DNA of 64,000 bases from a virus: the UHGV virus genome UHGV-0277313, one strand, 5' to 3'. Both the position numbers and the translations under genes were made by a program. Below the pieces are notes generated by a model, which was given only the letters and a program-made list of their open reading frames with translations, was not told the origin of the DNA and searched no databases. This document shows, piece after piece, positions 1,388 to 45,191 of this stretch (within the stretch, counting starts at the first letter, position 1; each line of letters begins with the position of its first letter).

Positions 1388-1466
1388 TTCGCGAATAGCC
1401 TTTATCTGTTTCAGTACATGTATTTATACTATATTTCAAAACAAATGTCAACAGTTTATATAATGG

Positions 1467-2408
1467 TTATTTCTTTTTCCAAATCAAAAGGACTTCACCA
1501 TTTCTTGAAACATTACCTTTACGTTGAAAATGATTATTATTTGTATGGGAACCTATTTCTTGTTCTTTAATGAAATCGAAAACAGTATCATCCACCACGC
1601 TCATCATTTTTTCTTTAAATTTATTACTGATGATGAATGCGAAGATTTTGCAAGAATCTTTAGAAGTAGCTGTTTTTACAACATTACTCCACCAAATCAG
1701 AAAGTCTTTTTTGGAAAGGTGTTCAGCGCCTTTATCTGAATAGATTTCTTGATTAAAGTAAGGGGGACAAGTGAATACAGCTTCATAAGCTTGATCGGGA
1801 ATAAAATCTTCTGCATCATTGTTATTGAAGAAAACGCTATCAGAAATGTTATTATCAAGTGTTTTCATATCTTTATACATTTCTTTAACATTATTATATG
1901 TAGCTGTATTAATGTCATTGTATATGTATGTAATATCTGGAATTGAGATAGCTCCTAAACAACGGTGTCCCCACCCACCACAAGGGTCATATATAGATTT
2001 AACATTAAAATCTTTAATGAATTGTTTAATATAAAATGGTGAATGATAACTTTTGCCACGGTAGATTCCGGCTTTGCGAAACCCTTGAATAACTTCACCT
2101 TTAGTTAATTCACCAAAACCTTTATTGATATATTGTTTGCGATTTTGATATAGCCAATCACGCAAAGGCATTCCGTGATAGTTTTCATTTTTATTCCACA
2201 TATCAATTTCATGTTTAAACATTTCTTTTGATTGATATTTATTGACGATTTTATTTGTATTGTATAATGCAGAATATCCACGATCTTCTTTTTTAATATG
2301 TTTCCATTCTTGTAGAATTGATTTGTCAGAAACTTCGATATAAAGATCATCATAATAAGAAGCGGGGTAATTAGGTTGTGTTTTAGTTATCATTTTAGTT
2401 ATTTCCAC
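1467..2408 (-). CDS. DNA methyltransferase (amino-MTase: motif I DPCGGWG, motif IV TCPPY)
   Basis: 313-aa ORF with FxGxG-like DPCGGWGHR followed by FTCPPYF (DPPY-type catalytic motif of N6A/N4C MTases). Confidence 0.7.
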   Translation of the reverse strand: MEITKMITKTQPNYPASYYDDLYIEVSDKSILQEWKHIKKEDRGYSALYNTNKIVNKYQSKEMFKHEIDMWNKNENYHGMPLRDWLYQNRKQYINKGFGELTKGEVIQGFRKAGIYRGKSYHSPFYIKQFIKDFNVKSIYDPCGGWGHRCLGAISIPDITYIYNDINTATYNNVKEMYKDMKTLDNNISDSVFFNNNDAEDFIPDQAYEAVFTCPPYFNQEIYSDKGAEHLSKKDFLIWWSNVVKTATSKDSCKIFAFIISNKFKEKMMSVVDDTVFDFIKEQEIGSHTNNNHFQRKGNVSRNGEVLLIWKKK

Positions 2409-2553
2409 AAATTAGTGAATCTTTAAAGATATGAATAAATTATCAGAAACTTTATTAGCTGTCAATTTAAAAATTAATTAAATTGCGAATTTGTTTAGAA
2501 CAAATAACTAAAGTTCTAAATTTATAATTTAACACAACATATGGTGTATTAAA

Positions 2554-2838
2554 ATGTCTGATGAAACTTTAAATTTTGACAATCTTCCAGATATGGAAAA
2601 CTTAATGCAAGAAGATGATGCCGATTCAAATGTTGCTGAAATTGAAAACAACGATTCAGCAAACAATGAAAATGAAGCAGATGACATTGAAAATGAAATG
2701 GAAGCTTCCGAAGATAATGATGAAGATTTTGAAGAATCCGTGATTACATTATTCAATAAAAGTCTTGCTGAAATGGTTGAAAAAGAAACTTTCGATAATA
2801 AAGCGTTGCATGAAGCTTTTGTAAAAGCTTTAGGTTAA
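2554..2838 (+). CDS. highly acidic small protein (about 35 percent D/E), possible DNA mimic
   Basis: 94-aa ORF, SD upstream, runs of D/E/N (EDDADSNVAEIENNDSANNENEADDIENEMEASEDNDEDFEE). Confidence 0.55.
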   Translation: MSDETLNFDNLPDMENLMQEDDADSNVAEIENNDSANNENEADDIENEMEASEDNDEDFEESVITLFNKSLAEMVEKETFDNKALHEAFVKALG

Positions 2839-2858
2839 TTCTATAATAGGTAAGAACA

Positions 2859-3311
2859 ATGGCGGATAATAAACCAGTTGCATATCGTTATGATGATAAA
2901 GGGTATTATATTGGTGAGATTACTTGTCAATTAGATCCTCTAGAATCAAAACTAGCAGGAAAGTCTATATATTTAGTTCCAGGTGAATCAACTTTAGTAA
3001 AACCTTTAAAAGGAAAAGAAGGTTTTAAAGTTAAATGGGACAGTGATTCGTATAAATGGTTTTACGAAGAAGTAATAGTAGAAAAGCCTGAAGAATATGT
3101 TCCGACTGAAGCTGAAAAACTTCAAATGGAAATTTCACAGAAGAAAGGTGAATTGTATAAATCCGATTATAAAGCAATTAAATACGCCGAAGGCTGGATT
3201 TCAGAAGAAGAGTACGCACCTGTAAAAGCTGAAAGACAAGCGATTAGAGACGAAATAAACGCTCTAGAAGCAAAGTTAGCTGAAATCAACGGGAATACAG
3301 CTCAATCTTAA
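2859..3311 (+). CDS. hypothetical protein (weak resemblance to tail-fibre assembly/chaperone C-termini)
   Basis: 150-aa ORF with SD (taggtaagaacaATG); convergent with tail-fibre gene; followed by bidirectional terminator. Confidence 0.5.
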   Translation: MADNKPVAYRYDDKGYYIGEITCQLDPLESKLAGKSIYLVPGESTLVKPLKGKEGFKVKWDSDSYKWFYEEVIVEKPEEYVPTEAEKLQMEISQKKGELYKSDYKAIKYAEGWISEEEYAPVKAERQAIRDEINALEAKLAEINGNTAQS

Positions 3312-3331
3312 TTAAATTGTTGTGTTAATTA

Positions 3332-3358
3332 GAAAGGCCGCTTTAAGCGGCCTTTCTT
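3332..3358. terminator. bidirectional intrinsic terminator between convergent genes
   Basis: perfect hairpin gaaaggccgc-ttta-gcggcctttc flanked by A-run upstream and T-run downstream. Confidence 0.8.
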
Positions 3359-3365
3359 TTTATGT

Positions 3366-6005: not shown

Positions 6006-6062
6006 AGGCTTTCTCCGTTAAGAATTTAGTTTCTTCAAATTCAAGAACGGTTTTTTAATTGT

Positions 6063-6467
6063 TCAATCTTGCTTTAGCTTCGTTTCGTCAACTGCACCAA
6101 ATTGAATATGAGTTATTGTACCGTCATCATCAGAATAATAAACGTTTTTAATTCCAACATGCCTAATGATTTTTTCACACATAGGGCAAGGTTTTGCACA
6201 ACCAACAACTTTATCTTTAGAGTAACGATACACTAGAATTGAACAACCTTTTAGTTTATTCCAATCAACTTTTAACAGGGCAGATTGTTCAGCATGCAAA
6301 GATTCAGGCCAATGACGATGTTTCATAGGAATGCTAGAGCTACGAATGTCATTATAACCACGAGAAAAAATTCGTTTTCCTTTAAAAATAATAGCTCCAA
6401 TACGAGGGTAGCAAGTAGATTTTTTAGCTTCTTCAATAGCTGCATTAACAATAGATTGATAGATCAT
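6063..6467 (-). CDS. dCMP (cytidine/deoxycytidylate) deaminase
   Basis: 134-aa ORF with zinc-binding HAEQSAL and PCPMCEK (H[AC]E ... PCxxC) motifs of the CDA/dCMP deaminase family. Confidence 0.8.
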   Translation of the reverse strand: MIYQSIVNAAIEEAKKSTCYPRIGAIIFKGKRIFSRGYNDIRSSSIPMKHRHWPESLHAEQSALLKVDWNKLKGCSILVYRYSKDKVVGCAKPCPMCEKIIRHVGIKNVYYSDDDGTITHIQFGAVDETKLKQD

Positions 6468-6539
6468 TTAGTTCGTCTTTGTTCCTGTTAAACAATAAAT
6501 AATTTATATCACACACATAGGATATTGTCAACAGTAATT

Positions 6540-7040
6540 TTAAATTTTATCTAAAACGTCTTCATAGCTTTTAAAAACAATATCGCTTAGTGCATCTTTT
6601 GCGTTGTAGTATGTTTTGCAATAGTCATGCTCAAAGTCAATTGGTTCATTTATTTGATGTTTGCAAAAATCTTTTGTTTTGGGTTCGTATAGAAGAAAAG
6701 TTGTAGGAAGTCTAACAACTAACATTGGAGGATTTTGTTCAGTTGCACTTTTCCATGCAAAGAATTGTACTATAAATCCTTTGTATTGTTGTTTGATAAA
6801 AGAAGACATTTCATTAAATAAATCATAGTCTGTATCAAAATAAATTGTTGTACTATCAGTGTCTTCAGTAAAGCTTTTGATTGTTTCAAAATTAGCGAAA
6901 TTGTCTTCAAAATTTAGTTCGTTAGTTAAATTGTCTTTAGAAATAGTTAGACAGATAGCTTTACCGTTAATCGCATAGTAGCTAAACAGATAATAGACGT
7001 CATCAAATTTTGATTCATTGCAAACTTTAAAATATTCCAT
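6540..7040 (-). CDS. paralog-array protein 1 (C-terminus ...FKSYEDVLDKI)
   Basis: 166-aa ORF, member of 7-gene tandem family sharing the C-terminal block AF.DPIF.NYIDVLNEI. Confidence 0.6.
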   Translation of the reverse strand: MEYFKVCNESKFDDVYYLFSYYAINGKAICLTISKDNLTNELNFEDNFANFETIKSFTEDTDSTTIYFDTDYDLFNEMSSFIKQQYKGFIVQFFAWKSATEQNPPMLVVRLPTTFLLYEPKTKDFCKHQINEPIDFEHDYCKTYYNAKDALSDIVFKSYEDVLDKI

Positions 7041-7049
7041 AAAAATCCT

Positions 7050-7529
7050 TTAAATTTCATTAAGAACATCTTGATAGCTGAACATTTCAGGTGATTTCAA
7101 TGCATCAGAAACAGTATCATAGTATTCAATGATTTTAAAATTTTCTGTATTCTTTCCAGACCATAGCGGTTTGGCATCAAAATCATTTGCTAATCTATAT
7201 ACTTGAACAGCATCAATGTCAATTATAATTATTGAAGTATGCAACAAACCAATCACAGTGTGTCCGGTATTTTTATCAAGTAATGTGCAAATTACAGGTT
7301 CAATATTATTTTCCTCTAAAGTATCGTCTAAATGTGACAGCATTTCTTTCAAGGAATTGTTGTGAATAATTTTATATTCTTTATTTGGAATTTTAGAAGG
7401 AAATATATATAGACGATTGTCGTCTATATAAAGTGCTTGAACTGTTGTTGTATCTTCTGTTTTATTAAACACTTCTAAAACATAAATAATATTTTTTGAG
7501 AAGATAATATCAAATTGTTTTATTTGCAT
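7050..7529 (-). CDS. paralog-array protein 2 (C-terminus ...FSYQDVLNEI)
   Basis: 159-aa ORF, tandem family member. Confidence 0.6.
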   Translation of the reverse strand: MQIKQFDIIFSKNIIYVLEVFNKTEDTTTVQALYIDDNRLYIFPSKIPNKEYKIIHNNSLKEMLSHLDDTLEENNIEPVICTLLDKNTGHTVIGLLHTSIIIIDIDAVQVYRLANDFDAKPLWSGKNTENFKIIEYYDTVSDALKSPEMFSYQDVLNEI

Positions 7530-7541
7530 GTCCTGTTCCTT

Positions 7542-8054
7542 TTAGATTTCGTTTAAAATGTCAATATAATTTTTAAAGATAGGATCTTGAAAGGCGTCTT
7601 CTATGTTTGTATAAAGTTTAACATAATTATTTTCATCTTGTAATTTAGATTCAGCGCTTGTTGAACTTAAGACTTCGAACTTTTTACTGTTTGGTGAATA
7701 AATTAAATATTGGTCATCAATGTTAATTAACAATTTTGGTTTACTGTATGCACTATCACAAAATACAAATACGTCAGAAGTATTAAGCTTGAATATTCTT
7801 TTATACGATTGTTGTATGTCATTCAACATTTCAACATCTGTATCAAAATCTGTTTTGACATAATCGTCCAAATGTTCGTCAGTAAAGTTTTTAATAATCC
7901 AGATGTTAGCATGGTGATAATCACGATTATTTGTTGTAAGAGAGAAGTTTAATGTGTTGTTAACTTCAACACCTTCAATAACATAAAATGTAATGAATGT
8001 GTCAAGTACATCAATAGTTTGTCTTGTTTTTGAATACTTACAATATTTTGTCAT
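7542..8054 (-). CDS. paralog-array protein 3 (N-terminus MTKYCKYSKTRQT, C-terminus NYIDILNEI)
   Basis: 170-aa ORF; first 13 codons plus upstream region identical at DNA level to gene at 9101..9604. Confidence 0.65.
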   Translation of the reverse strand: MTKYCKYSKTRQTIDVLDTFITFYVIEGVEVNNTLNFSLTTNNRDYHHANIWIIKNFTDEHLDDYVKTDFDTDVEMLNDIQQSYKRIFKLNTSDVFVFCDSAYSKPKLLINIDDQYLIYSPNSKKFEVLSSTSAESKLQDENNYVKLYTNIEDAFQDPIFKNYIDILNEI

Positions 8055-8080
8055 TGTTATATTCCTATTTAAATTTCGTT
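8017..8080. repeat. 64-bp exact direct repeat, copy A (spans a gene start, RBS and the preceding gene's end)
   Basis: tttgtcttgtttttgaatacttacaatattttgtcattgttatattcctatttaaatttcgtt identical to 9567..9630. Confidence 0.85.
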
Positions 8081-8584
8081 AAGTACATCAACATAGTTTT
8101 TAAAAATAGGATCGTTGAAAGCTTGCAGAATATCACTGTATTCTCGTATGTAATAATCTTCATTTTGAAGTTTCATGTTTAAAAGATATCGTGACGTAAA
8201 AAAGATTGTTTGTTTTTTAGGTGTATAAACTAAAGAATTGTTTTTATAATTTATAGCAATATTTGGTATACTTTTAAGTGATTCAGCATATACCATAATG
8301 TTGTTTGTATCAATATTATTTGCTTTCTTTATGGAATTTTCAAGATCTTCGAACATTTTGATGTCATTGTCAAAATCAACCTTCTGTAAATTTTCATTTG
8401 GAGTTTTAGGGTCGAAATTAAAACTTTGCGAAATGAGTAAATCATAGTAGTTATCTTTTTTATAATAAGTCAATAAAGTTTGAATTACACTACATTCGTT
8501 GTTCGTTGAAATACAATAATAGCTTTCATACATATCAACAAATTGTAAATGCTCTTCTCGATAATATTTATAAAAATTGCTCAT
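8069..8584 (-). CDS. paralog-array protein 4 (C-terminus NYVDVLNEI)
   Basis: 171-aa ORF, tandem family member. Confidence 0.6.
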   Translation of the reverse strand: MSNFYKYYREEHLQFVDMYESYYCISTNNECSVIQTLLTYYKKDNYYDLLISQSFNFDPKTPNENLQKVDFDNDIKMFEDLENSIKKANNIDTNNIMVYAESLKSIPNIAINYKNNSLVYTPKKQTIFFTSRYLLNMKLQNEDYYIREYSDILQAFNDPIFKNYVDVLNEI

Positions 8585-8593
8585 GTCAAACCT

Positions 8594-9100
8594 TTAAATT
8601 TCATCTAAAACATTTATATAACTTAAAAAGATTGGATCTTTAAAAGCATCTGAAATATCACTATATGTCTTAAAATAATCATATTGTTTATTGATTTCTT
8701 CTCGAATGTTGGCAACAAAATCCAAAATGATATTTTTATAAATTGGGGAGTATATCAAAATATCATTTTCAATAGGTATAATGATTTTAGGAGTTTCTTT
8801 CAGATCTGCCATTTGCCAGACATATACTTCATAATTCTTTATTTTATACATATCTGTATATAAACGTTGTATATCTTCAAATAATTCGACATCACTTGAA
8901 AAGTTGATTCTTTTATAATCATTATCTAAACTATTAAGAATTTGTATGTTGCTGCTAGTGTTGACAACATACCCATTAGAACCGTCAACGTATTGTGAAC
9001 ATACAAAAGCAAAACATTGTTTATCAATCACATAAAAATTTCTTACGTGATGTCCGCTTTTATTTGTATTCTCAAAAACATATTTACAAAATTTTGTCAT
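8594..9100 (-). CDS. paralog-array protein 5 (N-terminus MTKFCKY, C-terminus SYINVLDEI)
   Basis: 168-aa ORF, tandem family member. Confidence 0.6.
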   Translation of the reverse strand: MTKFCKYVFENTNKSGHHVRNFYVIDKQCFAFVCSQYVDGSNGYVVNTSSNIQILNSLDNDYKRINFSSDVELFEDIQRLYTDMYKIKNYEVYVWQMADLKETPKIIIPIENDILIYSPIYKNIILDFVANIREEINKQYDYFKTYSDISDAFKDPIFLSYINVLDEI

Positions 9101-9604
9101 TTAAATCTCGTTTAATACGTCAATGTAATTTGTGAATATTAAATCTTTTAAAGCAGTTTCAACAAAGTTGTATTTTTGATGATAGGCAATCTCATTTTCA
9201 TCAAACCATTGATCAACGACATATCCACTGACAGCATTAACATCGTCTGTTGCAGGTGTATATATAATAGCGTCACTTTGAATGAACATTATAAGTTTAG
9301 GTTTAGAATAGATATCATTGAATTGAATTACTAAATTCTCAACTGTCTTCTTTTCATAAAAGCTTTTATATTGATTTTGTAAATCAGAAAACAACTCTAT
9401 TGCATTATTAAAATCTGTTTTGTTTTTTTCATCTAAAGAGACAATAATTTCATCCGCATTTCCTGAAGTAATATTATATGTAGGAAAGACACGCTCAACA
9501 GAAAATTGTACTAAAATATATTTTTTATTAATAATATAATAGGCTGTATAATGTTTTCCTGTATTTGTTTGTCTTGTTTTTGAATACTTACAATATTTTG
9601 TCAT
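9101..9604 (-). CDS. paralog-array protein 6 (N-terminus MTKYCKYSKTRQT, C-terminus NYIDVLNEI)
   Basis: 167-aa ORF; zero-nt spacing to next paralog; shares the 64-bp repeat. Confidence 0.65.
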   Translation of the reverse strand: MTKYCKYSKTRQTNTGKHYTAYYIINKKYILVQFSVERVFPTYNITSGNADEIIVSLDEKNKTDFNNAIELFSDLQNQYKSFYEKKTVENLVIQFNDIYSKPKLIMFIQSDAIIYTPATDDVNAVSGYVVDQWFDENEIAYHQKYNFVETALKDLIFTNYIDVLNEI

Positions 9605-9630
9605 TGTTATATTCCTATTTAAATTTCGTT
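9567..9630. repeat. 64-bp exact direct repeat, copy B
   Basis: identical to 8017..8080; copies are 1550 bp (three gene units) apart. Confidence 0.85.
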
Positions 9631-10137
9631 TAAAACATCAATGTAATTTATAATAGAAGGGTCTTTGAAAGCTTCAGCAACTGTTTCATAACGTTTCAAA
9701 TATACAGCATCTTCTGTCATAAATTTAGGTATTTTGGTTGCTTTTATACTATTAACAGAATCATTCTCAAATGAATAGTAAAAACTATAATCAGTATCAT
9801 TTATTGCAAATAATATGGCAGGACGCTTGTTAATATCGGTTAAAATAACAAAAATTTGTAAAGGTAAATTTTCGAAATGTTTTTTAAACCCATTGACAAA
9901 GTCTTTAAACAATTCCTCAACATTATCAAACATGATGGTTTTATAATCTAAAAATGAAAGAGGTACATCTAGTGTAGGTGATGTATGTACGTCATATTTT
10001 AAATAATCATCTTTTAAATACTTTGTAAAAACAGATATAAATGCCGTTTTGTTAACTATGTATTTATTATATTCAGATTCTTCTTTAAATCGTGACGAAG
10101 TTGCTTCTTCATAATATTTAAAATATAGATTATTCAT
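9619..10137 (-). CDS. paralog-array protein 7 (C-terminus INYIDVLNEI)
   Basis: 172-aa ORF, tandem family member. Confidence 0.6.
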   Translation of the reverse strand: MNNLYFKYYEEATSSRFKEESEYNKYIVNKTAFISVFTKYLKDDYLKYDVHTSPTLDVPLSFLDYKTIMFDNVEELFKDFVNGFKKHFENLPLQIFVILTDINKRPAILFAINDTDYSFYYSFENDSVNSIKATKIPKFMTEDAVYLKRYETVAEAFKDPSIINYIDVLNEI

Positions 10138-28726: not shown

Positions 28727-30025
28727 ATGGGTATGTCTTTTAACGAATCGATCAAAGCCATTGACACCATTCGTGCTTGCACGATCAACAACGGAGCGTC
28801 GATTGTTCCGTTGCTGTTGGGTGAAACAGGTATTGGTAAAACCGAACTGGTTCGTGAATATTGTCAAGAGAACAACTTGACGTTGATTACAATTCACGTT
28901 TCGCAGATTGAACCGTCTGACTTGACTGGCTTGTTCAAAATCAACAAGTACGGTAAGACGGATAACTGTTCACCGTCTTGGTTGCCGTGGCTGTCTGAAG
29001 CCGAGTTTGCGAAAATTCAAGAAAGCGGTGCCGTCGAGGTGGAAGTGTTGAATACCTTGAAAGAAGGTGTCATTAACCCGAACGGTGGTATCGTCTTTTT
29101 GGATGAAGTCAACCGTGGTCATGAAGACATCAGACAGTCTTTGTATCAGCTGATTAACGAACGTCGTATGCATACGTTCACCTTGCCGAACAATTACACG
29201 ATTGTGGCAGCGGCGAACCCGTCAAACGGTTATGAAACGTATGACTTCGATAGAGCGTTGGTCAACCGTTTCGCATGGATTGATTTTCAACCGAAAGCGA
29301 AAGAAACTGTTGATTACTTGACGGGTAAGTATTCGACTTCGCCTGTGGTTCAATGGTTGAAGAACAACGAAGAAATGATTGAACTGTGTGCTGTTGACAA
29401 GAATGGTGCGCCGATTTCGAATGACATGGACGATCAGAAAACTATGTCACCCCGTATTTTGGAACAGGGTATCATCTTGTTGGAAGAAATGCACCGTCGT
29501 CATTATCCGCAGAAGTTGAAAAATCAGATTTTGCGGTCAATCTGGAAGAAGAGCGATGTGGAAAGCTACTTGTCTTTCGATGAAGAAGCTGAAAACGCTA
29601 TTGAACTGGAAGACATCTTTACCGGAAAATGGAAGGAACCTGTCAAGAAGTATGTTGAACAACAGAAACTTGATTTGTTGTCGGTCATTGTTTCCCGTAT
29701 GGCGCGGTTCTTTGTTGATTATGAATTCAGCAAGCCGCGTACTGACAAGGAAAGCAAAATGGTCGAGAACGTGGTCGCTTTCTATCACGCCGTTCCTGAA
29801 GAATTGTGTGTAACGTTCTTGAGTGCTTGCACGAATAAATACTTTGAGACGAAAGATGGTCGGAAGTATTTCGGCAAGAATTGCAAGGACGGCAAGTTGA
29901 TTGTCAATGAACATCACTTGTGCATGCAGCCGGAATTTTCTGGTGGCAAAACACAGTATTCCGACAAGGAAATCGGTTCGGTTTTGAAAGGTTCGAAGAA
30001 CATCGGAGCCGCAACGAATAAGTAA
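28727..30025 (+). CDS. MoxR-family AAA+ ATPase
   Basis: Walker A GETGIGKT, Walker B IVFLDEVNR, sensor VAAANP and ALVNRF motifs. Confidence 0.75.
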   Translation: MGMSFNESIKAIDTIRACTINNGASIVPLLLGETGIGKTELVREYCQENNLTLITIHVSQIEPSDLTGLFKINKYGKTDNCSPSWLPWLSEAEFAKIQESGAVEVEVLNTLKEGVINPNGGIVFLDEVNRGHEDIRQSLYQLINERRMHTFTLPNNYTIVAAANPSNGYETYDFDRALVNRFAWIDFQPKAKETVDYLTGKYSTSPVVQWLKNNEEMIELCAVDKNGAPISNDMDDQKTMSPRILEQGIILLEEMHRRHYPQKLKNQILRSIWKKSDVESYLSFDEEAENAIELEDIFTGKWKEPVKKYVEQQKLDLLSVIVSRMARFFVDYEFSKPRTDKESKMVENVVAFYHAVPEELCVTFLSACTNKYFETKDGRKYFGKNCKDGKLIVNEHHLCMQPEFSGGKTQYSDKEIGSVLKGSKNIGAATNK

Positions 30026-30035
30026 AACAAATAAA

Positions 30036-30068
30036 GGGAAGGAGTTGAAACATATTCCTTCCCTTTTC
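30036..30068 (+). terminator. intrinsic terminator
   Basis: gggaagga-gttgaaacatat-tccttccc followed by tttt. Confidence 0.7.
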
Positions 30069-30088
30069 ACAACATTAAGGAGAACACA

Positions 30089-31363
30089 ATGACGACACAT
30101 ACCCTTGATGAACTGATTACCGCGACATTTGTTGCAACAGATGCAGACGGTAAAACGAATTCATACTATGCATTGGTCTTGAGTAAATGCAAGAAATATG
30201 CAAGTAAAGAAGTTCCGACGATGGGCGTTTGTTTCGACCAACGTGGAAAATTGGTTCTGTTGTGGAACCCTGACTTTCTTCGAAAGTTAACAGATGGTGA
30301 AGCGATTGCAGTGCTGAAACATGAAGCGATGCATATCTTCTTTAAACATCTGGCAAGGTTTCAGACAAAGAAAAATCACGAACGTGTGAACATCGCAACT
30401 GATATGGCAATCAATCAGTATTTGAGAGGATTGCCCGCAGGTTGTCAATTGCCTGAAACATACAATCTTCCGAGAGGTTTGTCAGCTGATGCATACTTGA
30501 AAGCATTGGAAGAACAAAACATCGCCGATCAGAAAAAGATGAAAGCATCAGGTGGTCAGGCAGGACAATCTGGTAAAGGTGGTAAAGGCGATAAAGACGA
30601 TGAAGGTGACGGTGATGGAAGCAGCGCCGGAACTGACAATCACGATACGTGGGATAAAGTCGTTGATGAAAATGGTAAAATCATCGGCGATACTGAAAGT
30701 GAAGGAGTTGATACACAATCGACACTGGATCGTATTTCACGAGCTGTTGCACAACGAATGAAAGAGAAAGGTGATACACCTGCATGGGCAACAGCAGTGG
30801 TTGACAATATGGATAAGAAATCAAAACACAATTGGAAAAACGAATTGCGGGTTTTGGTTAATTCCGTCTTGTCAACTGATAAACGTCGTTCGCAGAAACA
30901 TGTGGACAGAAGAATGATTTGTATCACAGATGACTTCTTGTTTCCTGGTAAAAAGAAAGACAGAAAGCCGTCAGTGTTATTGGTCAGAGATACTTCTGGT
31001 TCAATGTTTAATCCTGAAACACAAGCAGCGGTTTTGACTGAAATGGTGGCAATCAGTCGCAGGGCAGAGGTTCTGGTTTGCGATTGTGATGTGACCGTTC
31101 ATCAAGTCTATAAAGTCAGAAAACAATCTGATTTTAAAGAATATAAAGGTGGCGGTGGAACATCGTTCGTGCAACCTTTTGAGGAAGCCAAGAAACGAAA
31201 CGTTGATGCGGTCATTTATTTGACAGACTTGTATGGTGAATTTCCTGATCCGAGAAACATCGGGAAGTATGCAAGAAACACCGTATGGGTGACTGTTGAA
31301 AAAGATGCTGATACAAGAGACCCGCCGTTTGGTAAGGTTGTTCGTATTCAGGACGAGTTGTAA
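30089..31363 (+). CDS. VWA-domain protein with N-terminal HExxH metallopeptidase-like region (partner of MoxR ATPase)
   Basis: VLKHEAMHIFFKH (HExxH) near N-terminus; MIDAS motif LLVRDTSGSM in C-terminal half; Gly/Asp-rich linker. Confidence 0.65.
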   Translation: MTTHTLDELITATFVATDADGKTNSYYALVLSKCKKYASKEVPTMGVCFDQRGKLVLLWNPDFLRKLTDGEAIAVLKHEAMHIFFKHLARFQTKKNHERVNIATDMAINQYLRGLPAGCQLPETYNLPRGLSADAYLKALEEQNIADQKKMKASGGQAGQSGKGGKGDKDDEGDGDGSSAGTDNHDTWDKVVDENGKIIGDTESEGVDTQSTLDRISRAVAQRMKEKGDTPAWATAVVDNMDKKSKHNWKNELRVLVNSVLSTDKRRSQKHVDRRMICITDDFLFPGKKKDRKPSVLLVRDTSGSMFNPETQAAVLTEMVAISRRAEVLVCDCDVTVHQVYKVRKQSDFKEYKGGGGTSFVQPFEEAKKRNVDAVIYLTDLYGEFPDPRNIGKYARNTVWVTVEKDADTRDPPFGKVVRIQDEL

Positions 31364-35303: not shown

Positions 35304-35753
35304 ATGATTAAAGAGTGTGATAAGAAAGATGCAACGTTAGCTTTTATCATTCAGTCATTGGCTGAAGAAGGCGGTGTACAGTTGCACGGAAAACAAACAG
35401 ATGTGAACCGTATCAAAGGGAATATTGGTTCACAATTAACAATCAAGACTAAAGTTCCTATTACTAAAAGTCTGATTGATGCACTGAACGAAATGGAAGA
35501 TACAGCAACAATAAGCTTGACTTCTTTATCAGAAACGGTCAATATGTTTAAACAAAAACAAGAAGCTATGGAAAACAGTATGAAAAAACTGTTGGACATT
35601 GTTACACGATTGACAAATGCTGTTGATAACTTCGCAGCAGAGAATTGTGAAAGCCTTGACGATGTGAAAGAGTTTGAAGAAACATACAACGTAAAGGTCA
35701 GTAACACACTGAAAGAGGAATTCAAAGCGATTGAAGAAATACGCGAGAGGTGA
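35304..35753 (+). CDS. hypothetical protein
   Basis: ORF from ATG after aaaaggagtttgacaATG. Confidence 0.55.
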   Translation: MIKECDKKDATLAFIIQSLAEEGGVQLHGKQTDVNRIKGNIGSQLTIKTKVPITKSLIDALNEMEDTATISLTSLSETVNMFKQKQEAMENSMKKLLDIVTRLTNAVDNFAAENCESLDDVKEFEETYNVKVSNTLKEEFKAIEEIRER

Positions 35754-35755
35754 AT

Positions 35756-35947
35756 ATGAAATCTAAAGAAAAGAGTAATGAAACATTGACAATGGCAAGG
35801 TTGGAAGGAACGAGTATAGCTTTACATCGTTTCAGTATAGTCCTTGCCGTTGTCGTGTTTTTTGGGGCAATGACTTTACAAGGAACATATGATCCTGTCA
35901 GTAAAGCAATTCAACAGATACGGTTGCAAGAAATACGGGGAGAATAA
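35756..35947 (+). CDS. small membrane protein
   Basis: TM segment FSIVLAVVVFFGAMTL. Confidence 0.45.
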   Translation: MKSKEKSNETLTMARLEGTSIALHRFSIVLAVVVFFGAMTLQGTYDPVSKAIQQIRLQEIRGE

Positions 35948-35950
35948 ACA

Positions 35951-37279
35951 ATGTCAAACAACCAAAACATGCACAAGGCAAAAACGGAAAAGAATGACGA
36001 GTTTTACACAAGAAGGGAGGATATCGAAAAGGAACTTAAAAATTACAAAGATTACTTTAAAGGCAAAAGAGTGCTGTGTAATTGTGATGACCCGTTTGAA
36101 AGTTACTTCTTTAAATTCTTTGCTTCGCAATTCAAAGAGTTGAAATTAAAAAAGTTAATCACAACAAGCTATTATGACAGCGCTATCAAAAAGCAGAATA
36201 TCAATATGTTTGATGTTGGCGCTTACGCTGTTGTTATGGACAAAAAGGCAGGTTTTTTTAAACAACGAACATATGATTTGCAAGATGTTGAATGCTGGTT
36301 GGAAGAACAAAAGAACCTTTCGATACAAGGATCAGATTCTGCTTTAAAGTCGTTGACGACAGGGGACTTTGCAAGTAAAGAATGTGTGAAGTTCCTTGAT
36401 GAAGCTGATATTGTTGTGACAAATCCGCCGTTTTCAAAATTCCGTGAGTTTGTTGCCTTGCTGATGGAACATAAAAAACAGTTCCTAATTATCGGGAATA
36501 TGAATGCAATCACATATAAAGAAATTTTCCCGTTGATTAAGGAAAACAAATTGTGGTTGGGATATGAATCACCGAAAGAGTTTGTACAACCTGATGGAAC
36601 AACTAAAAAGTTTGGTAACATTTGTTGGTTCACAAACTTGCCGACCGAGAAACGTGAAGAGTATTTGGATTTGTTCGAAAATTACAGTCCTGACAAATAC
36701 CCGATGTACGACAACTATCTTGCAATCAATGTTGACCGTGTGTCTGACATTCCGTGCAATGAATGGTTTATCATGACGGTTGGTGAAGACCGTTATAACA
36801 AACTGAAAGCGACGTATGGTGACGATTGCGTGCTGATTGATGGTGATGATGTTAATAAACAGTATCGCATCAAGGTTCGTAACATTGTCATGGGTGTTCC
36901 TATTACGTTCCTTGACAAGTATTGCCCAGAACAGTTTGAGATTGTATCATTCCGTAAAGGCGATAACGGTGAAGACTTAATCTTTACGAGAGAGAGAGAG
37001 AAAGAGTTCAATCGTACTTTCGAGTCCTTATACGACATCGATAGCAGGAGTGATCAAGAACAAAGAAGGATTGATAAATGGGAAGCCTACATACGCGAGA
37101 ATAACAATAAGAAAGGTGGTTTAACAAGAGAACCTATTGATTGTTTTCATGTGTTGTTAACAAATGGAAATTGTGCTTCACATGGTAAAGAAGTAAGGAG
37201 GATTGAGAATGAAAGCCCTTGTATTAATGGAAAGTGGCTTTATACCAGAATAACAATTCGTAAGAAACCTAAACAATAA
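35951..37279 (+). CDS. N6-adenine DNA methyltransferase (EcoRI-methylase-like; NDEFYT and TNPPF motifs)
   Basis: N-terminal KNDEFYTRREDIE and catalytic VVTNPPFS (NPPF/Y motif IV). Confidence 0.65.
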   Translation: MSNNQNMHKAKTEKNDEFYTRREDIEKELKNYKDYFKGKRVLCNCDDPFESYFFKFFASQFKELKLKKLITTSYYDSAIKKQNINMFDVGAYAVVMDKKAGFFKQRTYDLQDVECWLEEQKNLSIQGSDSALKSLTTGDFASKECVKFLDEADIVVTNPPFSKFREFVALLMEHKKQFLIIGNMNAITYKEIFPLIKENKLWLGYESPKEFVQPDGTTKKFGNICWFTNLPTEKREEYLDLFENYSPDKYPMYDNYLAINVDRVSDIPCNEWFIMTVGEDRYNKLKATYGDDCVLIDGDDVNKQYRIKVRNIVMGVPITFLDKYCPEQFEIVSFRKGDNGEDLIFTREREKEFNRTFESLYDIDSRSDQEQRRIDKWEAYIRENNNKKGGLTREPIDCFHVLLTNGNCASHGKEVRRIENESPCINGKWLYTRITIRKKPKQ

Positions 37280-37291
37280 ACCTTAACAAAT

Positions 37292-37328
37292 AAAAGCGGT
37301 ATCATTCATTGGTATCGCTTTTATTTTA
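37292..37328 (+). terminator. intrinsic terminator
   Basis: aaaagcg...cgctttt stem followed by attttat. Confidence 0.5.
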
Positions 37329-37374
37329 TCAAACATTCAACAAATTGTCAACATCTAAATGAAAGGAAAAAGAG

Positions 37375-38550
37375 ATGACGATGAAAATTACGAAAACCGA
37401 AATTGCAGTTCGCGATTTGGTGAAGAATTACAAGGAGGATAAGAAGACGCATGAAGTCGTTGGTTACGGCAAGAAGCTGAACATTCGTCCGAAGTATCAG
37501 AGGGAATTTGTTTATGAAGGCAAAAAGGAAAAACAGAAGTTCGCTGTTATTGAAACAGTGATGAAAGGTTTCCCGCTGAATACCGTTTATTGGGCAAAGT
37601 CTGATGAGGATGGATTCGATTGGGAAGTTCTTGATGGGCAGCAGCGTACAATTTCGCTTTGTCGTTTCTGTACAAATCAGTTTTCGATTGAGTTGGAAAA
37701 AGGTTTCCCGATGACTTTTGCGAACCTTTCAGAAGAAGACCAGAACAAGATTTTGGATTACAAGCTTGACGTGTATCAGTGCGAAGGAACTGATGCAGAA
37801 AAGCTTGAATGGTTTAAAGTCATTAACATTGCAGGTGAAAAACTGTTTCCGCAGGAATTGAGAAATGCGGTTTATGCAGGTGAATGGTTGACCCGTGCAA
37901 AAGAATTGTTTTCCAAACGGACAGGTTGGGTGTATCGCAAATACAAAGACCTTTTGTCTGGAGAAGTCATTCGACAGGATTACCTTGAAACGGCATTGAG
38001 TTGGATTGGTGCGAAGGAAGGCAAGAGTATTGAGGAATACATGGCAGCGCACCAGTTTGACGAAGTGAACAAAGAAGGAACACCTGAAGGATTCCCGTTG
38101 TTCAAATATGTGAAAGATGTGTTTGATTGGGTTGACAAGACATTCCCGACAGCGCGGTCATATTTGAAAGAAGCGAAGAAAGTGGAATGGGGTTTGTTGT
38201 ACAATCGGTTTGGTACAGAGTCGCCTGACATTGAAGAAATCAATGATGAGGTCAACCGCCTGATGATGGACAGTGATGTTCAGAAAAAATCAGGGATTTG
38301 GGAATATGTGTTATCGAATGATGAGAGTGCATTGAACATTCGCACGTTTGATGACAATACCAAACGGGAAGTATATGAACGCCAAAATCACAAATGTCCG
38401 TATTGTGTACGGGAAGGAAATGACAAGGAGTACAACATCGAAGATATGGAAGCTGATCATATAACGCCGTGGTCACAGGGCGGGAAGACGACAGCTAATA
38501 ACTGTCAGATGTTGTGTAAGAAACACAATCGAAAGAAGAGTGACAAGTAA
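37375..38550 (+). CDS. DUF262 (ParB-like NTPase/nuclease, DGQQR motif) + C-terminal HNH nuclease; GmrSD-like type IV restriction-type enzyme
   Basis: KYQREFVYE ... VLDGQQRTISLCRF N-domain; C-terminal CPYCV...ADHITPWSQGG...NCQMLCKKHNRKK HNH. Confidence 0.7.
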   Translation: MTMKITKTEIAVRDLVKNYKEDKKTHEVVGYGKKLNIRPKYQREFVYEGKKEKQKFAVIETVMKGFPLNTVYWAKSDEDGFDWEVLDGQQRTISLCRFCTNQFSIELEKGFPMTFANLSEEDQNKILDYKLDVYQCEGTDAEKLEWFKVINIAGEKLFPQELRNAVYAGEWLTRAKELFSKRTGWVYRKYKDLLSGEVIRQDYLETALSWIGAKEGKSIEEYMAAHQFDEVNKEGTPEGFPLFKYVKDVFDWVDKTFPTARSYLKEAKKVEWGLLYNRFGTESPDIEEINDEVNRLMMDSDVQKKSGIWEYVLSNDESALNIRTFDDNTKREVYERQNHKCPYCVREGNDKEYNIEDMEADHITPWSQGGKTTANNCQMLCKKHNRKKSDK

Positions 38551-38557
38551 GAACATG

Positions 38558-38586
38558 TTGACAAATGGAACGGGTGGTAGTAATAT
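38558..38586 (+). promoter_or_regulatory. sigma70 consensus promoter (TTGACA-N17-TAATAT) overlapping hairpin aacgggtg...cacccgtt
   Basis: ttgacaaatggaacgggtggtagtaatat; hairpin followed by tttt. Confidence 0.6.
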
Positions 38587-38624
38587 CACCCGTTTTCAAT
38601 AAAAATGGTGGAAGGAGTAAAGAG

Positions 38625-38894
38625 ATGATTAAGGTTGGCGATATTTGCAAAGAGACAGTAAGTGATGATAAGGAAGTTATGTATGTCATCACGAAGATAG
38701 CGTCATCGGAAGTGACAGATGTTCACATGATAACATCGGACGGAGAGACGCAGTGTTTGTCGTTTGTTGATGAAGAAACGATGAATGACACGTTAGAAGC
38801 GAATCGAATCATCAGTAATGATGAAGACAAGGATTGGTTGACAATGGCGAGTGTAGTCTTTACTGACGGGTTAAGAACGATACATTCGATATAA
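38625..38894 (+). CDS. hypothetical protein (C-terminus ...DGLRTIHSI)
   Basis: ORF trimmed to ATG after ggaaggagtaaagagATG. Confidence 0.5.
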   Translation: MIKVGDICKETVSDDKEVMYVITKIASSEVTDVHMITSDGETQCLSFVDEETMNDTLEANRIISNDEDKDWLTMASVVFTDGLRTIHSI

Positions 38895-38909
38895 TAAGGA
38901 GTGAAGACG

Positions 38910-39584
38910 ATGGGACAGCGTTTAATTGTGGAATTTAAGTATCAAGATAAAACAATTGCAGGATTGTATCAACATTGGTCAGCCTATACATTGGACGCTT
39001 TCAATACATTGGAATGTCTGATGGGTATAGGATATCGTGAAAAGCCCCAGAATGAGAAACAGGCTTTATTGCAAGCTTTGGAGATGATTAGCAACATTGA
39101 AGGTGTTGCGTGGGACAGTTATGACCCGACAGAGAAAAACAGTGATGACGAGGATAACGGTTGGGTATATATCCGAAAGAACTTTACAGGGAACGATGAC
39201 GAATCGAACGATATTCGTGAGATATCAAAATCGTTTTGTTTTGTGGGAGACCGTTCAACAGGGTTAGCAATCGTAGGCAAGCCAGCTGAAGATTGTTTGG
39301 GTTTAGGTGAGTATAGTATAGCGATTAGACTTGATGAACATGTAATCGAGTTTGACGTATATAACAGATACGACAACATGGTTGAGTATGTGGATTGTTG
39401 TGGCAATCCTTCAAAAAGACCGTCGCGAGTAATCTTGCCTAAAGGTGTGTACGTTGACTATTTCAAATTTGATGATATGCATTATATATCATCGTTTTTG
39501 GAAAAGTTGGGTGATGGAACAGCCTATTTTGCACCAAGTGTTGGCTATTGTGATGACGACACGATTTTTAGTGCAATAGGATAA
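38910..39584 (+). CDS. hypothetical protein
   Basis: ORF from ATG after aaggagtgaagacgATG. Confidence 0.55.
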   Translation: MGQRLIVEFKYQDKTIAGLYQHWSAYTLDAFNTLECLMGIGYREKPQNEKQALLQALEMISNIEGVAWDSYDPTEKNSDDEDNGWVYIRKNFTGNDDESNDIREISKSFCFVGDRSTGLAIVGKPAEDCLGLGEYSIAIRLDEHVIEFDVYNRYDNMVEYVDCCGNPSKRPSRVILPKGVYVDYFKFDDMHYISSFLEKLGDGTAYFAPSVGYCDDDTIFSAIG

Positions 39585-39606
39585 CTTTAACAAAGGAGTA
39601 AAAGAT

Positions 39607-41916
39607 ATGGAAGTTAAAACGTCGAATGTGGTTATGGAAAGCAGTGAACAGTTGCAAGAAAAACAATTTACGATTGCAACGAATGCGAAAGCGTTTGAAA
39701 TCCTGACGAGTACATTGTATAAGAATGTTCCGTCGTCAATCGTTCGGGAATTGATTTCGAATGGTTATGATGGACATGTTCGTGCGGGGAATGTCGATAA
39801 AGAAATTGAGGTACATGCCCCGTTTGTTTTTGAACCGACTTTTGAAGTTCGTGATTTTGGTTGTTCGATGGACGAAGAAACGATGATGAATGTATATACG
39901 ACATTCTTTTCATCGACCAAAAACGCGGATAACAATGAAGTCGGCGGTTTCGGGTTGGGTTGTAAATTGCCGTTTGCATATACGGATATGTTCACTATTA
40001 CAACGTATCTGAATGGCAAACAGCAAGATTATATCGCCAGCAAGAACAATGGTGTTCCGACATTGAGCAAGTTGGGAGATGCAACTGATACGTCTGAACC
40101 GAATGGCGTTAAGGTGTGTGTTCCTGTTCAAGAAGACGACATTGATGCCTTCTGTGGGGCTGTCAAGTATATGGTGAGATATTCCAAGTTTAAAATCAAA
40201 TCAAATTTGGAATGTGAAGCTGTGAAAGAATATGACAACTTCGGGTTGACAAACTTTCACAATTATGGTCAAATCACTGAAGAAGATAGATGTTTCAAAT
40301 GGAAACAGATTATCAGAGTTGGTGGTGTGCCGTATGCCTTTGACAAAAGCACGATGGAGCAAGACTTCATTGGTTGGCAAGATGTCAAGTACTTCAAGCT
40401 TGAAAAAACCTATGAGGGAAACAACGCATTGTTGCATGAAGCTTTGGCTGAATGTAATGATACGGAATTTCTTGAATGTAACATGTCGCAGCTGTTTAAC
40501 TTCAATGGCTGTTTGGATTTTGAAGTGGGTGAATTGGATATTACGGCATCGAGAGAATCCTTGCAGTATTCAAAGAAAACCCGTAAAGCGTTATTCAAAC
40601 GATTGGTTGAAGTGCAAACTGCTTTGTCGAAACGTCTGACAAAGATGTTAGATAAGTGGAACAATAACGTTGGAACGTTTCAGGAAGCGTTGGAGAAGTT
40701 AAAATACTTCAAACAAATTCAATGGGGAGCGTTTTCGTATGTTGTCAGAAACCGCCCGTTCAAATACAGATGCGGTCGTCATGAAAACAAAGTTAATTTG
40801 GATTCGTGTGACGTGTCGCTGGTTTGTTATGGGGATCAGGTGTTGAAAGAAAACGATTTGTTGAAAGGTTTGATTACGCCTAAACTTCATACGTTAAATG
40901 GAGATACAAAACGTATTCAACATTCAGCAAGATTGACGACGTTTAATCCTTGTAAGGGTTTGAAACAGATTGAGGTTTATTTGACAAATGCCCCTTTGAA
41001 ACATTCGGGCATTTCAATAAGCCAAGAAGAGATTAACTTGTTAGGTCGGTATTCGGCGTGCAAGGCAATCATTTCTGTTTCGAGTCGTTCAAACGTTAAA
41101 GAGCAAGGAGAGTGGCTGCAAAAACAGTTTGATGAAATTTGTCCAGACCTGTATAAAGTAATCACGGTTGACAAGAAAGATTGTTTCATTCCGAAAGTTG
41201 AAAAGGAAAGAAACGGTAAGACTGTCACAGTGGTTGCTGAAGACGAACGCCCGATGACGATTGCCGCCAAAGAGTTGATTGAACAGATGAAACCGATCAG
41301 CGATTGTTTTGGTCAAATCTATCTGTTCAAATCAAACAGTATTCAATATCAAGTACAACGGGTATTGGAGAGTTTGGTGATGGCAAAAGACTTAACGGGT
41401 ATTCCTGACTTAACCCCGATTCTTGAATGTGTCAAGATTCATGGAACGGCAAGAAAGATGGTTGAGAAATACACTGATATTCCTGTTGTCTTCTTTGAAG
41501 ATGAAATGGAAAACGACAGAAACGGTGATGTTATCTTCCGTCATGAATTGTTCCGTAAATTGAAACATGTCTTGCAAAGAATATGTTTCTTTATAAACAT
41601 GGATTCTGATACTGCAAAACTTGGAAGGGCTATCGTTAAATATGGCAAAGACCTTAATGTGAACATGGATACATTGAAGGTGATGGCACAATATAAGGAG
41701 ATGGCTTTCCCGAATTTGTATCTGTCGGAAGTCAATATGGATTCTGATCATGTTCAAGAGGTTTGGGTGAATGTCTGTCGGAATTGTCTTAACCGTTTGG
41801 ATAATGAACAAAGGTTCAAACTGTTGGCACAAATCTTCTTGAACTGTAGCTTCTATTTGCCGAATAAGCCGTTCAGGAAACTGATTGCAAGTTTCGGCTT
41901 GACAACGGACAGGTAA
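39607..41916 (+). CDS. GHKL-superfamily (Hsp90/MutL/histidine-kinase-like) ATPase domain protein, 769 aa
   Basis: N-box RELISNGYDG and G-box GGFGLGCK in N-terminal 160 aa; long uncharacterised C-terminal region. Confidence 0.65.
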   Translation: MEVKTSNVVMESSEQLQEKQFTIATNAKAFEILTSTLYKNVPSSIVRELISNGYDGHVRAGNVDKEIEVHAPFVFEPTFEVRDFGCSMDEETMMNVYTTFFSSTKNADNNEVGGFGLGCKLPFAYTDMFTITTYLNGKQQDYIASKNNGVPTLSKLGDATDTSEPNGVKVCVPVQEDDIDAFCGAVKYMVRYSKFKIKSNLECEAVKEYDNFGLTNFHNYGQITEEDRCFKWKQIIRVGGVPYAFDKSTMEQDFIGWQDVKYFKLEKTYEGNNALLHEALAECNDTEFLECNMSQLFNFNGCLDFEVGELDITASRESLQYSKKTRKALFKRLVEVQTALSKRLTKMLDKWNNNVGTFQEALEKLKYFKQIQWGAFSYVVRNRPFKYRCGRHENKVNLDSCDVSLVCYGDQVLKENDLLKGLITPKLHTLNGDTKRIQHSARLTTFNPCKGLKQIEVYLTNAPLKHSGISISQEEINLLGRYSACKAIISVSSRSNVKEQGEWLQKQFDEICPDLYKVITVDKKDCFIPKVEKERNGKTVTVVAEDERPMTIAAKELIEQMKPISDCFGQIYLFKSNSIQYQVQRVLESLVMAKDLTGIPDLTPILECVKIHGTARKMVEKYTDIPVVFFEDEMENDRNGDVIFRHELFRKLKHVLQRICFFINMDSDTAKLGRAIVKYGKDLNVNMDTLKVMAQYKEMAFPNLYLSEVNMDSDHVQEVWVNVCRNCLNRLDNEQRFKLLAQIFLNCSFYLPNKPFRKLIASFGLTTDR

Positions 41917-41991: not shown

Positions 41992-42651
41992 ATGATTAAA
42001 TACTTTATTACTCCGAAAGTCTTGACTATGATTATTAACGGTAAGCAGATGTTCGTTCCGCAAAGTCATCTGAATTACGATACAATGTGCAATGCATTAC
42101 GTCAAGGTTGTAAAGATGAAAAGGTCATTATGGAATTGTTTGACCTTAAGAAATGTATGCTGGTGGAATTTCCGAACTATGTGGAAATTGATGAAAACGG
42201 TATGCTGGTATTGAAATACTGTCATGAAATCAACATGGAGAAATTCACAAAAGAAACGTTGTTGCAAAAACGCGATGGGGCTTGTGTTGAAAGTTTCTTC
42301 ATATTGCTGGCAAACATGAGCCAAAACAAAAGTGTGGATACATATCAGTTTTTACAATGGCTGAAAAAGAAGGGATATACCTATTCACACATGGGTACGA
42401 TTCTGTGTTATGCAAGAGTCTTTGATAACATGGGTGACGTTTTGCTTACTGACAAGAGAGATGCAAATGCAATTATCAGTATTCACCCGAAATACATTGA
42501 ATTCGTGACAGTGGACGGGGCGTTGAGAGAGAAAACGTTAGTCCAAAGCGAAGCAAGTTTAGAAATTGAATGGCACGGTAACAATGAGCCTGTTCCTTCG
42601 TTGGAAAACTTCAATGTCTTCAATGGGAACGATATGTTGGGTTGCATCTAA
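41992..42651 (+). CDS. hypothetical protein (C-terminus ...NGNDMLGCI)
   Basis: 219-aa ORF, SD gaaagggcaagacaATG. Confidence 0.55.
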   Translation: MIKYFITPKVLTMIINGKQMFVPQSHLNYDTMCNALRQGCKDEKVIMELFDLKKCMLVEFPNYVEIDENGMLVLKYCHEINMEKFTKETLLQKRDGACVESFFILLANMSQNKSVDTYQFLQWLKKKGYTYSHMGTILCYARVFDNMGDVLLTDKRDANAIISIHPKYIEFVTVDGALREKTLVQSEASLEIEWHGNNEPVPSLENFNVFNGNDMLGCI

Positions 42652-44639: not shown

Positions 44640-45191
44640 ATGAGAAACGTAGAATTGTTGAGCAAGAACAAAGATATGACAAAACAAATCGAAGCTGTCA
44701 ATAAGGCTATCGAAAAGTTTGGTCATAAAGACAATGAAACCGTGCAGATAGATTCTGTTGACAACGTAGCCAAAGATGATGTAGTCTTTATCTATGATTA
44801 CAGTTGTTTAGGAAAGAGCTTTCACGCTTTTATCGAAGCCTTCAAAGTTTTGGTATGGAAGAAAGCAGAGGTTCATTTTGTTGTTGAGAACTTGAATTAT
44901 TGGAACGATGTGCAATTGCAAGGATCCTTGACAGCATTGACATTTGCAGAAGAGTGTGAAAGAAGACTTCGCAGCGCGGTGTCAAAAGAGAACCTTGCAG
45001 AAGCAGCAACAAGAGGAAAGTTTGCAGGCCGTCCTAAAGGTTCAAAGAACAAAGAAAGTCTGATTATCACGAAAGCCGCTGAAATTGAATTTTGGTTGCA
45101 GCAAGGAGAAACCAAAAAATGGATTGCTAAACAGTTGGGTATTTCGGTGGGTACGATATATAACTATATCAAATCCAAAACAGAAGCTTAA
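44640..45191 (+). CDS. serine-recombinase (resolvase/invertase)-like protein with C-terminal HTH; N-terminal catalytic Ser motif apparently absent
   Basis: internal DYSCLGKS...ALTFAEECERRLRS resembles resolvase DRLGRS/E-helix region; GRPKGSKNKES then HTH KKWIAKQLGISVGTIYNYI. Confidence 0.5.
   Translation: MRNVELLSKNKDMTKQIEAVNKAIEKFGHKDNETVQIDSVDNVAKDDVVFIYDYSCLGKSFHAFIEAFKVLVWKKAEVHFVVENLNYWNDVQLQGSLTALTFAEECERRLRSAVSKENLAEAATRGKFAGRPKGSKNKESLIITKAAEIEFWLQQGETKKWIAKQLGISVGTIYNYIKSKTEA

Follow-up and report, generated by a model that had tools for sequence, protein, structure and literature searches.

The 64,000-nucleotide (nt) stretch of virus genome UHGV-0277313 that was analysed here, called below the window, carries between positions 35951 and 41916 three large open reading frames (ORFs), all on the plus strand, just as they had been placed by an earlier reading of the letters alone. 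The region is most probably composed of a two-gene restriction–modification (R-M) cassette (35951–38550), which encodes a DNA methyltransferase (M) and a nuclease (R), and of an unrelated neighbour, rIIA (39607–41916), the two being adjacent in this phage lineage only. The sequence-only reading had seen in the same genes a defence-island-like trio comprising a methylase, a GmrSD-like type IV nuclease and a GHKL ATPase. Its idea of a phage-borne nuclease and methylase acting on foreign DNA is a fair one, but the trio and the type IV logic have not stood up. The cassette is a known kind of system, a Type II-like R-M system, residing in a phage, and the finding is both real and largely ordinary; a routine annotation tool for defence systems would label the region as Type II R-M with rIIA behind it. 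What the analysis shows is the identity of the domains, intact motifs, the linkage of M and R, the mobility of the module, purifying selection on it, and that rIIA is independent of it. The three genes are the following:

35951..37279, plus strand: EcoRI-family N6-adenine DNA methyltransferase of 442 amino acids (aa), the M subunit, identified by Pfam, PADLOC and alignment
37375..38550, plus strand: nuclease of 391 aa with a DUF262 domain (ParB/Srx-like, bearing DGQQR) and an HNH domain, the R subunit, identified by Pfam and PADLOC
39607..41916, plus strand: rIIA orthologue of 769 aa with an N-terminal GHKL ATPase domain and a variable C-terminal region, identified by PHROG and tblastn

The window is collinear over about 28.7–49.4 kb with the IMG/VR contig UViG_3300013426_000013 (313,762 bp, hereafter the 313-kb relative), and it is therefore ascribed to a jumbo-phage lineage. 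A contig from a gut metagenome encodes a nuclease 97% identical to that of the window and has the same genes downstream; the phage collection that was searched (50,697 records) contains no near-identical DNA.

The searches with hidden Markov models that had been suggested for this region recover EcoRI_methylase, DUF262 and HNH in Pfam, and PADLOC assigns its MTase_II and REase_II models to the methylase and the nuclease, respectively. The call of an adenine methyltransferase (MTase), made initially from the motifs NDEFYT and TNPPF, is fully supported: both motifs are present, and the protein matches EcoRI_methylase with 3.1e-102 and MTase_II with 9.4e-92. TNPPF and CNCDDP are invariant in the methylase alignments, so that motif IV and the AdoMet region characteristic of S-adenosylmethionine (SAM)-dependent methyltransferases are both in place. 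The protein aligns end to end with the bacterial partners of the nuclease family, including a C-terminal Y-x-R-I motif. A frameshift in this long ORF was considered and rejected, given that the conserved C-terminal motif stays in frame. Two insertions are seen in the methylase: 39 aa before VMGVPITF (36760–36880), common only to the 313-kb relative, and about 75 aa (36900–37200) within the hypervariable C-terminal segment, which are specific for the window and absent from the relative. Directly 5′ of the methylase gene lies a 65-aa ORF with a hydrophobic stretch (35750–35947, plus strand); in the 313-kb relative this region is either missing or cannot be aligned (21–29% nt identity in the profile), and it represents a variable left border of the cassette.

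The nuclease gene begins 95 nt 3′ of the methylase gene on the same strand. The architecture proposed for its product, DUF262 with DGQQR followed by a C-terminal HNH, has been confirmed, since both domains match Pfam (N-terminal GmrSD_N/DUF262, 2.9e-17; C-terminal HNH, 4.2e-11). DGQQR is invariant across the family alignment, and all other invariant residues, the D-H...N...N set and the Cys pairs, are conserved as well, leaving the putative catalytic site intact. In PADLOC, the protein matches REase_II PDLC03418 with 1.5e-111 over practically its whole length (residues 3–391 versus profile positions 1–372 of 372), and there are weaker DUF262 matches to NsnA of Menshen (1.3e-27) and PD-T4-2_A (1.9e-11); none of the 11 matching models bears a type IV or GmrSD label, and NCBIfam has no model for the nuclease. 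The nuclease domains matched in Pfam are HNH (PF01844), HNH_5 and HNH_4, with no DUF1524 match at E ≤ 0.01. A confident AlphaFold2 model, built on a 24-sequence alignment, reached a mean predicted local distance difference test score (pLDDT) of 85.7 and a predicted template modelling score (pTM) of 0.72; a Foldseek comparison of this model with the PDB returned domain-level matches only (E > 0.01) and no whole-chain structure. Sequence searches of the PDB with the methylase, nuclease and rIIA proteins gave no match.

The association of the two genes has been followed in a genome scan, one genome per species, which yielded at least 594 confirmed matching stretches, of which the best 80 were examined. 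An EcoRI-family methylase gene stands upstream of the nuclease gene on the same strand in 74 out of 74 loci that have enough upstream DNA; each of the six loci with no detected methylase has less than 400 bp of upstream sequence. The median M–R spacing in these genomes is 155 nt. Contigs from Lachnospiraceae, Rodentibacter and Erythrobacter have the EcoRI_methylase gene upstream on the nuclease strand, with the stop and start codons of M and R overlapping in the latter two, and in the bacterial loci where gene boundaries were read (L006, L010, L012) the overlap amounts to 1–4 bases. The identities of M and R, compared pair by pair, rise and fall together (Pearson 0.43, Mantel p = 0.001), indicating that the two genes move as a unit. 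In the Lachnospiraceae locus (L001), a 169-aa gene with a weak Pfam match to SieB (superinfection exclusion) is located between methylase and nuclease (4489–4998), and the module adjoins relaxase/MobC genes and a D5-type primase gene.

The nuclease family is large, with more than 8,000 proteins at E ≤ 1e-10, and is found in Bacteroidota, Firmicutes, Proteobacteria, Cyanobacteria, bacteria of the candidate phyla radiation (CPR) and one archaeon; among the homologues listed, those from outside this phage lineage share 51–62% identity with the query and come from unrelated phyla. Homologues also occur in 50 plasmid records, the smallest of 7.5–8.6 kb, and in most of the plasmid records listed an annotated EcoRI-family methyltransferase lies beside them. 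In the phage collection, by comparison, 17 records have any nuclease match and four a near full-length one, and the M–R pair is confined to Flavobacterium phage laban6-1 and two faecal phage contigs, both unverified; three IMG/VR contigs carry the pair too. Methylases encoded by phages have been described as mostly orphans (PMC10477858), which would make a complete M–R pair the less common case. Most probably, in the explanation favoured here, a large gut phage captured a module that is common in bacteria, archaea and plasmids and spreads horizontally among them.

With a methylase, an adjacent but separate nuclease gene, linkage of the two across unrelated genomes, and a match to a curated restriction endonuclease (REase) model, the cassette shows sequence-level hallmarks of a Type II system. 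It resembles the known Type II pairs in which an M.EcoRI-family methylase accompanies an unrelated REase by its adjacent, co-oriented M and R genes, by the family of its methylase and by the full-length PDLC03418 match, as well as by carriage on plasmids, mobile elements and some phages. It differs in that its nuclease is of the ParB/DUF262–HNH type and not an EcoRI-like PD-(D/E)XK enzyme; binding of nucleoside triphosphates (NTPs) is unusual for Type II enzymes, whereas the DUF262 domain of the cassette nuclease suggests it. A restriction enzyme blocked by methylation together with a protective methylase is the parsimonious reading.

Comparison with the 313-kb relative gives the following amino acid identities and ratios of nonsynonymous to synonymous substitution (dN/dS):

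methylase: 80% aa identity, dN/dS 0.13
nuclease: 88% aa identity, dN/dS 0.09
rIIA: 57% aa identity, dN/dS 0.18
most other flanking genes: 45–68% aa identity, dN/dS 0.11–0.22 where measurable

Both cassette genes are intact, evolve under purifying selection and are better conserved than most of the genes around them. A sliding identity profile rises inside the cassette and drops sharply at both borders; cassette and flanks have the same GC content. Synonymous divergence (pS) is 0.48 in the nuclease versus 0.64–0.85 in the flanks, all of these values being near saturation. That the two phages recently exchanged the cassette horizontally was considered, but the lower pS of the nuclease is only suggestive of it, given the near saturation and the similar values of two unrelated neighbour genes.

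Two hairpins were read from the sequence, one between the cassette genes and one behind them:

37292..37329, plus strand: hairpin AGCGGTATC / GGTATCGCT with a T-run behind it, lying in the 95-nt M–R spacer, terminator- or attenuator-like, read from the sequence
38570..38593, plus strand: hairpin ACGGGTG/CACCCGT directly 3′ of the nuclease stop, read from the sequence and from an alignment with loci L101 and L016

Between the window and the 313-kb relative, the spacer shows 92% identity, and a single change in a hairpin arm turns G.U into A-U; among the hairpins listed by a consensus terminator scan, that of the spacer does not appear. This phage-specific hairpin may lower the expression of the nuclease relative to that of the methylase, and the second one likely marks the end of the cassette transcript. 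The latter overlaps the site TTGACA-17-TAATAT (38558–38586), which had been taken for a consensus promoter; its −35 element is absent from the 313-kb relative, and the 14 promoter-like sites of the region are fewer than in shuffled sequences (20.7 ± 4.5), so this promoter finds no support. Of the promoter-like sites in the region, the best-matching one (TTGACA-17-TAAAAT, 11/12, with TG; 37351–37323, minus strand) lies within the M–R spacer, where it faces the methylase gene and shares sequence with the T-run of the hairpin. The relative has kept this site, which may have arisen by chance or may serve antisense regulation.

Could the cassette be purely selfish, kept by addiction or mobility (post-segregational killing or cutting of cassette-free genomes) with no benefit to the phage, or could the nuclease have been silenced and the methylase retained for anti-restriction? 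The extreme mobility of the family, which crosses phyla and resides in plasmids as small as 7.5–8.6 kb, would fit such an explanation, as would the better conservation of the cassette than of its flanks in the two phages, spacer included, the prevalence of orphan methylases among phages (PMC10477858) and the terminator-like hairpin between M and R. However, the dN/dS of the nuclease reflects the strongest purifying selection in the block, and every catalytic residue has been kept, which is not what one expects of a decaying passenger; besides, selfish maintenance and benefit to the phage can coexist. An exclusively selfish or silenced cassette is therefore regarded as unlikely.

Considerably less likely still is the explanation that the DUF262–HNH protein is a GmrSD-like type IV nuclease directed against modified phages and that the methylase is an unrelated anti-restriction gene. 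GmrSD-type enzymes combine DUF262 with DUF1524 and attack modified DNA without a partner (PMC4619093; PMC10952713). The cassette nuclease does share with them the N-terminal DUF262 domain with DGQQR, but it does not stand alone: a methylase accompanies it in every one of the 74 loci with enough upstream DNA, where the stop codon of M often overlaps the start codon of R, and in the other nuclease-bearing phages as well. Its nuclease domain is PF01844 HNH with no DUF1524 match, and its best PADLOC model, matched end to end, is that of a Type II REase. Moreover, a nuclease dependent on N6-methyladenine (m6A) would be self-destructive and would kill every host bearing the pair, which disfavours the type IV reading. 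The nuclease being obligately linked to a methylase and matching REase_II, the methylase is best read as its protective partner, and it loses its value as an independent hint of modified DNA. In comparison with GmrSD and BrxU (DUF262 plus DUF1524), the cassette nuclease is also shorter (391 versus about 580 aa), possesses a classic PF01844 HNH with CxxC pairs, and its constant association with a methylase implies block by modification, not dependence on it.

Other systems lend themselves to comparison. SspABCD-SspE and DndBCDE-DndI likewise unite a modification module with a DUF262 nuclease (SspE, DndI), but there the modification is phosphorothioation carried out by a multi-protein machine, while in the cassette it would be adenine methylation by a single enzyme. 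Chloroviruses have nucleases that break down the DNA of their host. Virus-encoded R-M systems, known from chloroviruses and jumbo phages, are similar to the cassette in that a virus genome carries a methylase together with its nuclease and different as to enzyme family; R-M methylases are numerous in chloroviruses (PMC7248222).

If the cassette works as a Type II-like pair, the methylase would mark adenines at a specific site on the phage's own DNA, and the nuclease, through its DUF262 (ParB-like, NTP-binding) and HNH domains, would cut DNA that lacks this mark, possibly in an NTP-gated manner. The virion DNA would arrive pre-methylated, so that the nuclease could be made early; the unmethylated host chromosome, co-infecting phages and plasmids would be its targets. 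The M–R hairpin probably holds nuclease expression below that of the methylase. Jumbo phages have been reported to use R-M systems of their own against rival elements (PMC7824862).

A number of points weigh against this reading. The characterised DUF262 proteins GmrSD, BrxU and SspE all sense modified DNA (PMC10952713), which leaves room for another logic, and the notion that methylation blocks cleavage derives from gene linkage and the label of a PADLOC model. Offensive or competitive use by the phage is what we infer, purely, as the most likely role. No characterised REBASE enzyme behind the REase_II model could be identified from the literature, and neither a solved structure of the nuclease family nor, in the searchable literature, a biochemical description of the family or of the M–R pairing was found. 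The nuclease is unusually conserved, with pairwise identities of 47–99% across phyla. In the methylase, the segment between EQFEIVG and the terminal Y-x-R-I is hypervariable across the family in both length and sequence. A 116-kb viral contig (L015, IMGVR_UViG_3300044973_000253) contains, in tandem at 554–7086, four methylase paralogues, the third with an in-frame stop, upstream of one DUF262–HNH nuclease gene. For a simple Type II pair with one site, such a variable tail beside a conserved nuclease and a multi-methylase array are both atypical. The paralogues of this contig differ mainly in segments past the catalytic core, and in a Helicobacter phage the partner of a methylase of this family is annotated as an EcoRI-type nuclease. 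The tail variability, the paralogue array and the Helicobacter phage pairing do not contradict the R-M reading; the hypervariable tail and the arrays hint that specificity may be matched in a non-canonical way in this family.

The third large gene, rIIA, is independent of the cassette and is an ordinary counter-defence gene of large phages. Its product matches PHROG 612 'RIIA lysis inhibitor' with 6.1e-88, along with six further rIIA PHROGs, and tblastn finds homologues in 2,922 records of the phage collection, many of them annotated rIIA; in essence it is a core gene of the phage group, a circumstance that the sequence-only reading had itself named as fatal to its proposal. The first 408 residues align with the annotated rIIA of Cronobacter phage S13 (31% identity over about 440 aa, E = 6e-55). 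The assignment of a GHKL ATPase holds by virtue of this strong rIIA homology, the Pfam HATPase_c match itself (4.2e-5, 24.4 bits) being under the 26.4 cutoff; the GHKL motifs ELISNGYDG, RDFGCSMD and GGFGLGCK are visible in the sequence. The 600-aa C-terminal region is indeed uncharacterised, as had been remarked, but this is the normal state of the rIIA family and nothing special: the rIIA orthologues of jumbo phages consist of an N-terminal GHKL domain and a variable C-terminus (PMC7824862). With T4 rIIA, the protein shares the N-terminal GHKL ATPase, homology at the family level (6e-88), the long, poorly conserved C-terminus and a place in a large phage genome amid small ORFs of early type; it differs from annotated rIIA in sequence, being about 31% identical over the N-terminal half, and the 219-aa ORF that follows it is at best a remote relative of rIIB.

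A single new defence or exclusion system made up of all three large genes, whether or not the small ORFs between nuclease and rIIA are included, and with the GHKL ATPase acting as regulator or partner of the nuclease, is hardly credible. The genes do follow one another on one strand, and synteny is kept in two relatives, but this is explained by shared ancestry, the whole 28.7–49.4 kb block being collinear, while homologues of rIIA or of the small ORFs lie near the pair in none of the best 80 of at least 594 loci, rIIA is found in 2,922 phage records against 17 with any nuclease match (four near full-length), a hairpin follows the nuclease stop, and conservation falls sharply at the cassette borders. 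In the loci examined outside this phage lineage, the rIIA-type ATPase never accompanies the M–R pair, and more distant rIIA-bearing viral contigs are devoid of the latter.

The smaller genes next to rIIA lie outside the R-M module or behind it:

38625..38894, plus strand: small ORF of 89 aa from its likely start, specific for the phage lineage, outside the R-M module
38901..39584, plus strand: ORF of 227 aa, specific for the phage lineage, outside the R-M module, 54% identical in a relative
41992..42651, plus strand: ORF of 219 aa at the usual position of rIIB, with a weak phrog_609 match, 52% identical in a relative

The two small ORFs that had been noticed before the ATPase gene are thus present, but the first is more likely to start at 38625 than at 38565, judging by the gene call in the 97%-identical contig and by alignment to relatives; it is 43–45% identical in a relative phage. 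Neither the 89-aa nor the 227-aa ORF matches a Pfam, PADLOC or PHROG family. The 219-aa ORF has a weak match to phrog_609 'RIIB lysis inhibitor' (5.9e-7, profile positions 817–962 of 1055); it has no BLASTP similarity to S13 rIIB and no tblastn match in the phage collection, and is considered a possible rIIB-like candidate.

Farther out in the collinear block, a gene for a MoxR-like AAA+ ATPase (AAA_5) is followed by one for a DUF2201 VWA/metallopeptidase protein (28727–31363, plus strand), and these two are the best conserved with respect to the 313-kb relative (84–89% aa identity). A serine-recombinase-like protein of 183 aa with Resolvase N-terminal and HTH_7 domains is encoded at 44640–45191 (plus strand), with 55% identity in the relative.

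Elsewhere in the window, a deaminase and a second methyltransferase had been cited as signs of modified DNA. The former is well founded: the 134-aa product of 6063–6467 (minus strand) belongs to the dCMP/cytidine deaminase family (Pfam 4.4e-14) and has the HAE and PCxxC motifs. The latter (1467–2408, minus strand) has the motifs DPCGGWG and TCPPYF and a weak PHROG methyltransferase match (2.8e-7) but no Pfam match, and is plausibly a divergent methyltransferase. Among palindromes, GATC (observed/expected ratio, O/E, 0.50; z −7.8) and CATG (O/E 0.70; z −4.9) are strongly under-represented in the window, GGCC and CCGG are low too, and GAATTC and AATT are not depleted. The depletion of GATC and CATG suggests pressure from host R-M systems with such sites; an attempt to deduce the recognition site of the cassette from these statistics was abandoned as uninformative, since a phage has no need to avoid sites that it methylates itself. 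At 6540–10137 (minus strand) lie seven paralogous ORFs in tandem (159–172 aa, 23–39% identical pairwise); the one copy that was searched has no Pfam match, and the block is low in GC (26–31%) versus 36–44% in the 18–57 kb region.

What remains of interest is an uncharacterised DUF262–HNH restriction family and its use by a jumbo phage. It is possible, and put forward here tentatively, that the pair stands for a widespread, biochemically undescribed class of restriction systems, in which a GmrSD/SspE-like, NTP-gated ParB–HNH nuclease operates with inverted logic, adenine methylation blocking it, and that a jumbo gut phage has co-opted this class as an offensive weapon. The field treats DUF262 as a sensor of modified DNA, and a DUF262 nuclease partnered by a methylase could serve to test whether such a domain reads the unmodified state. 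Phages seem seldom to carry complete R-M pairs, near full-length nuclease homologues being present in four of 50,697 records, and the purifying selection that acts on the pair in this jumbo gut phage lineage suggests a real use in host takeover or in competition between phages.

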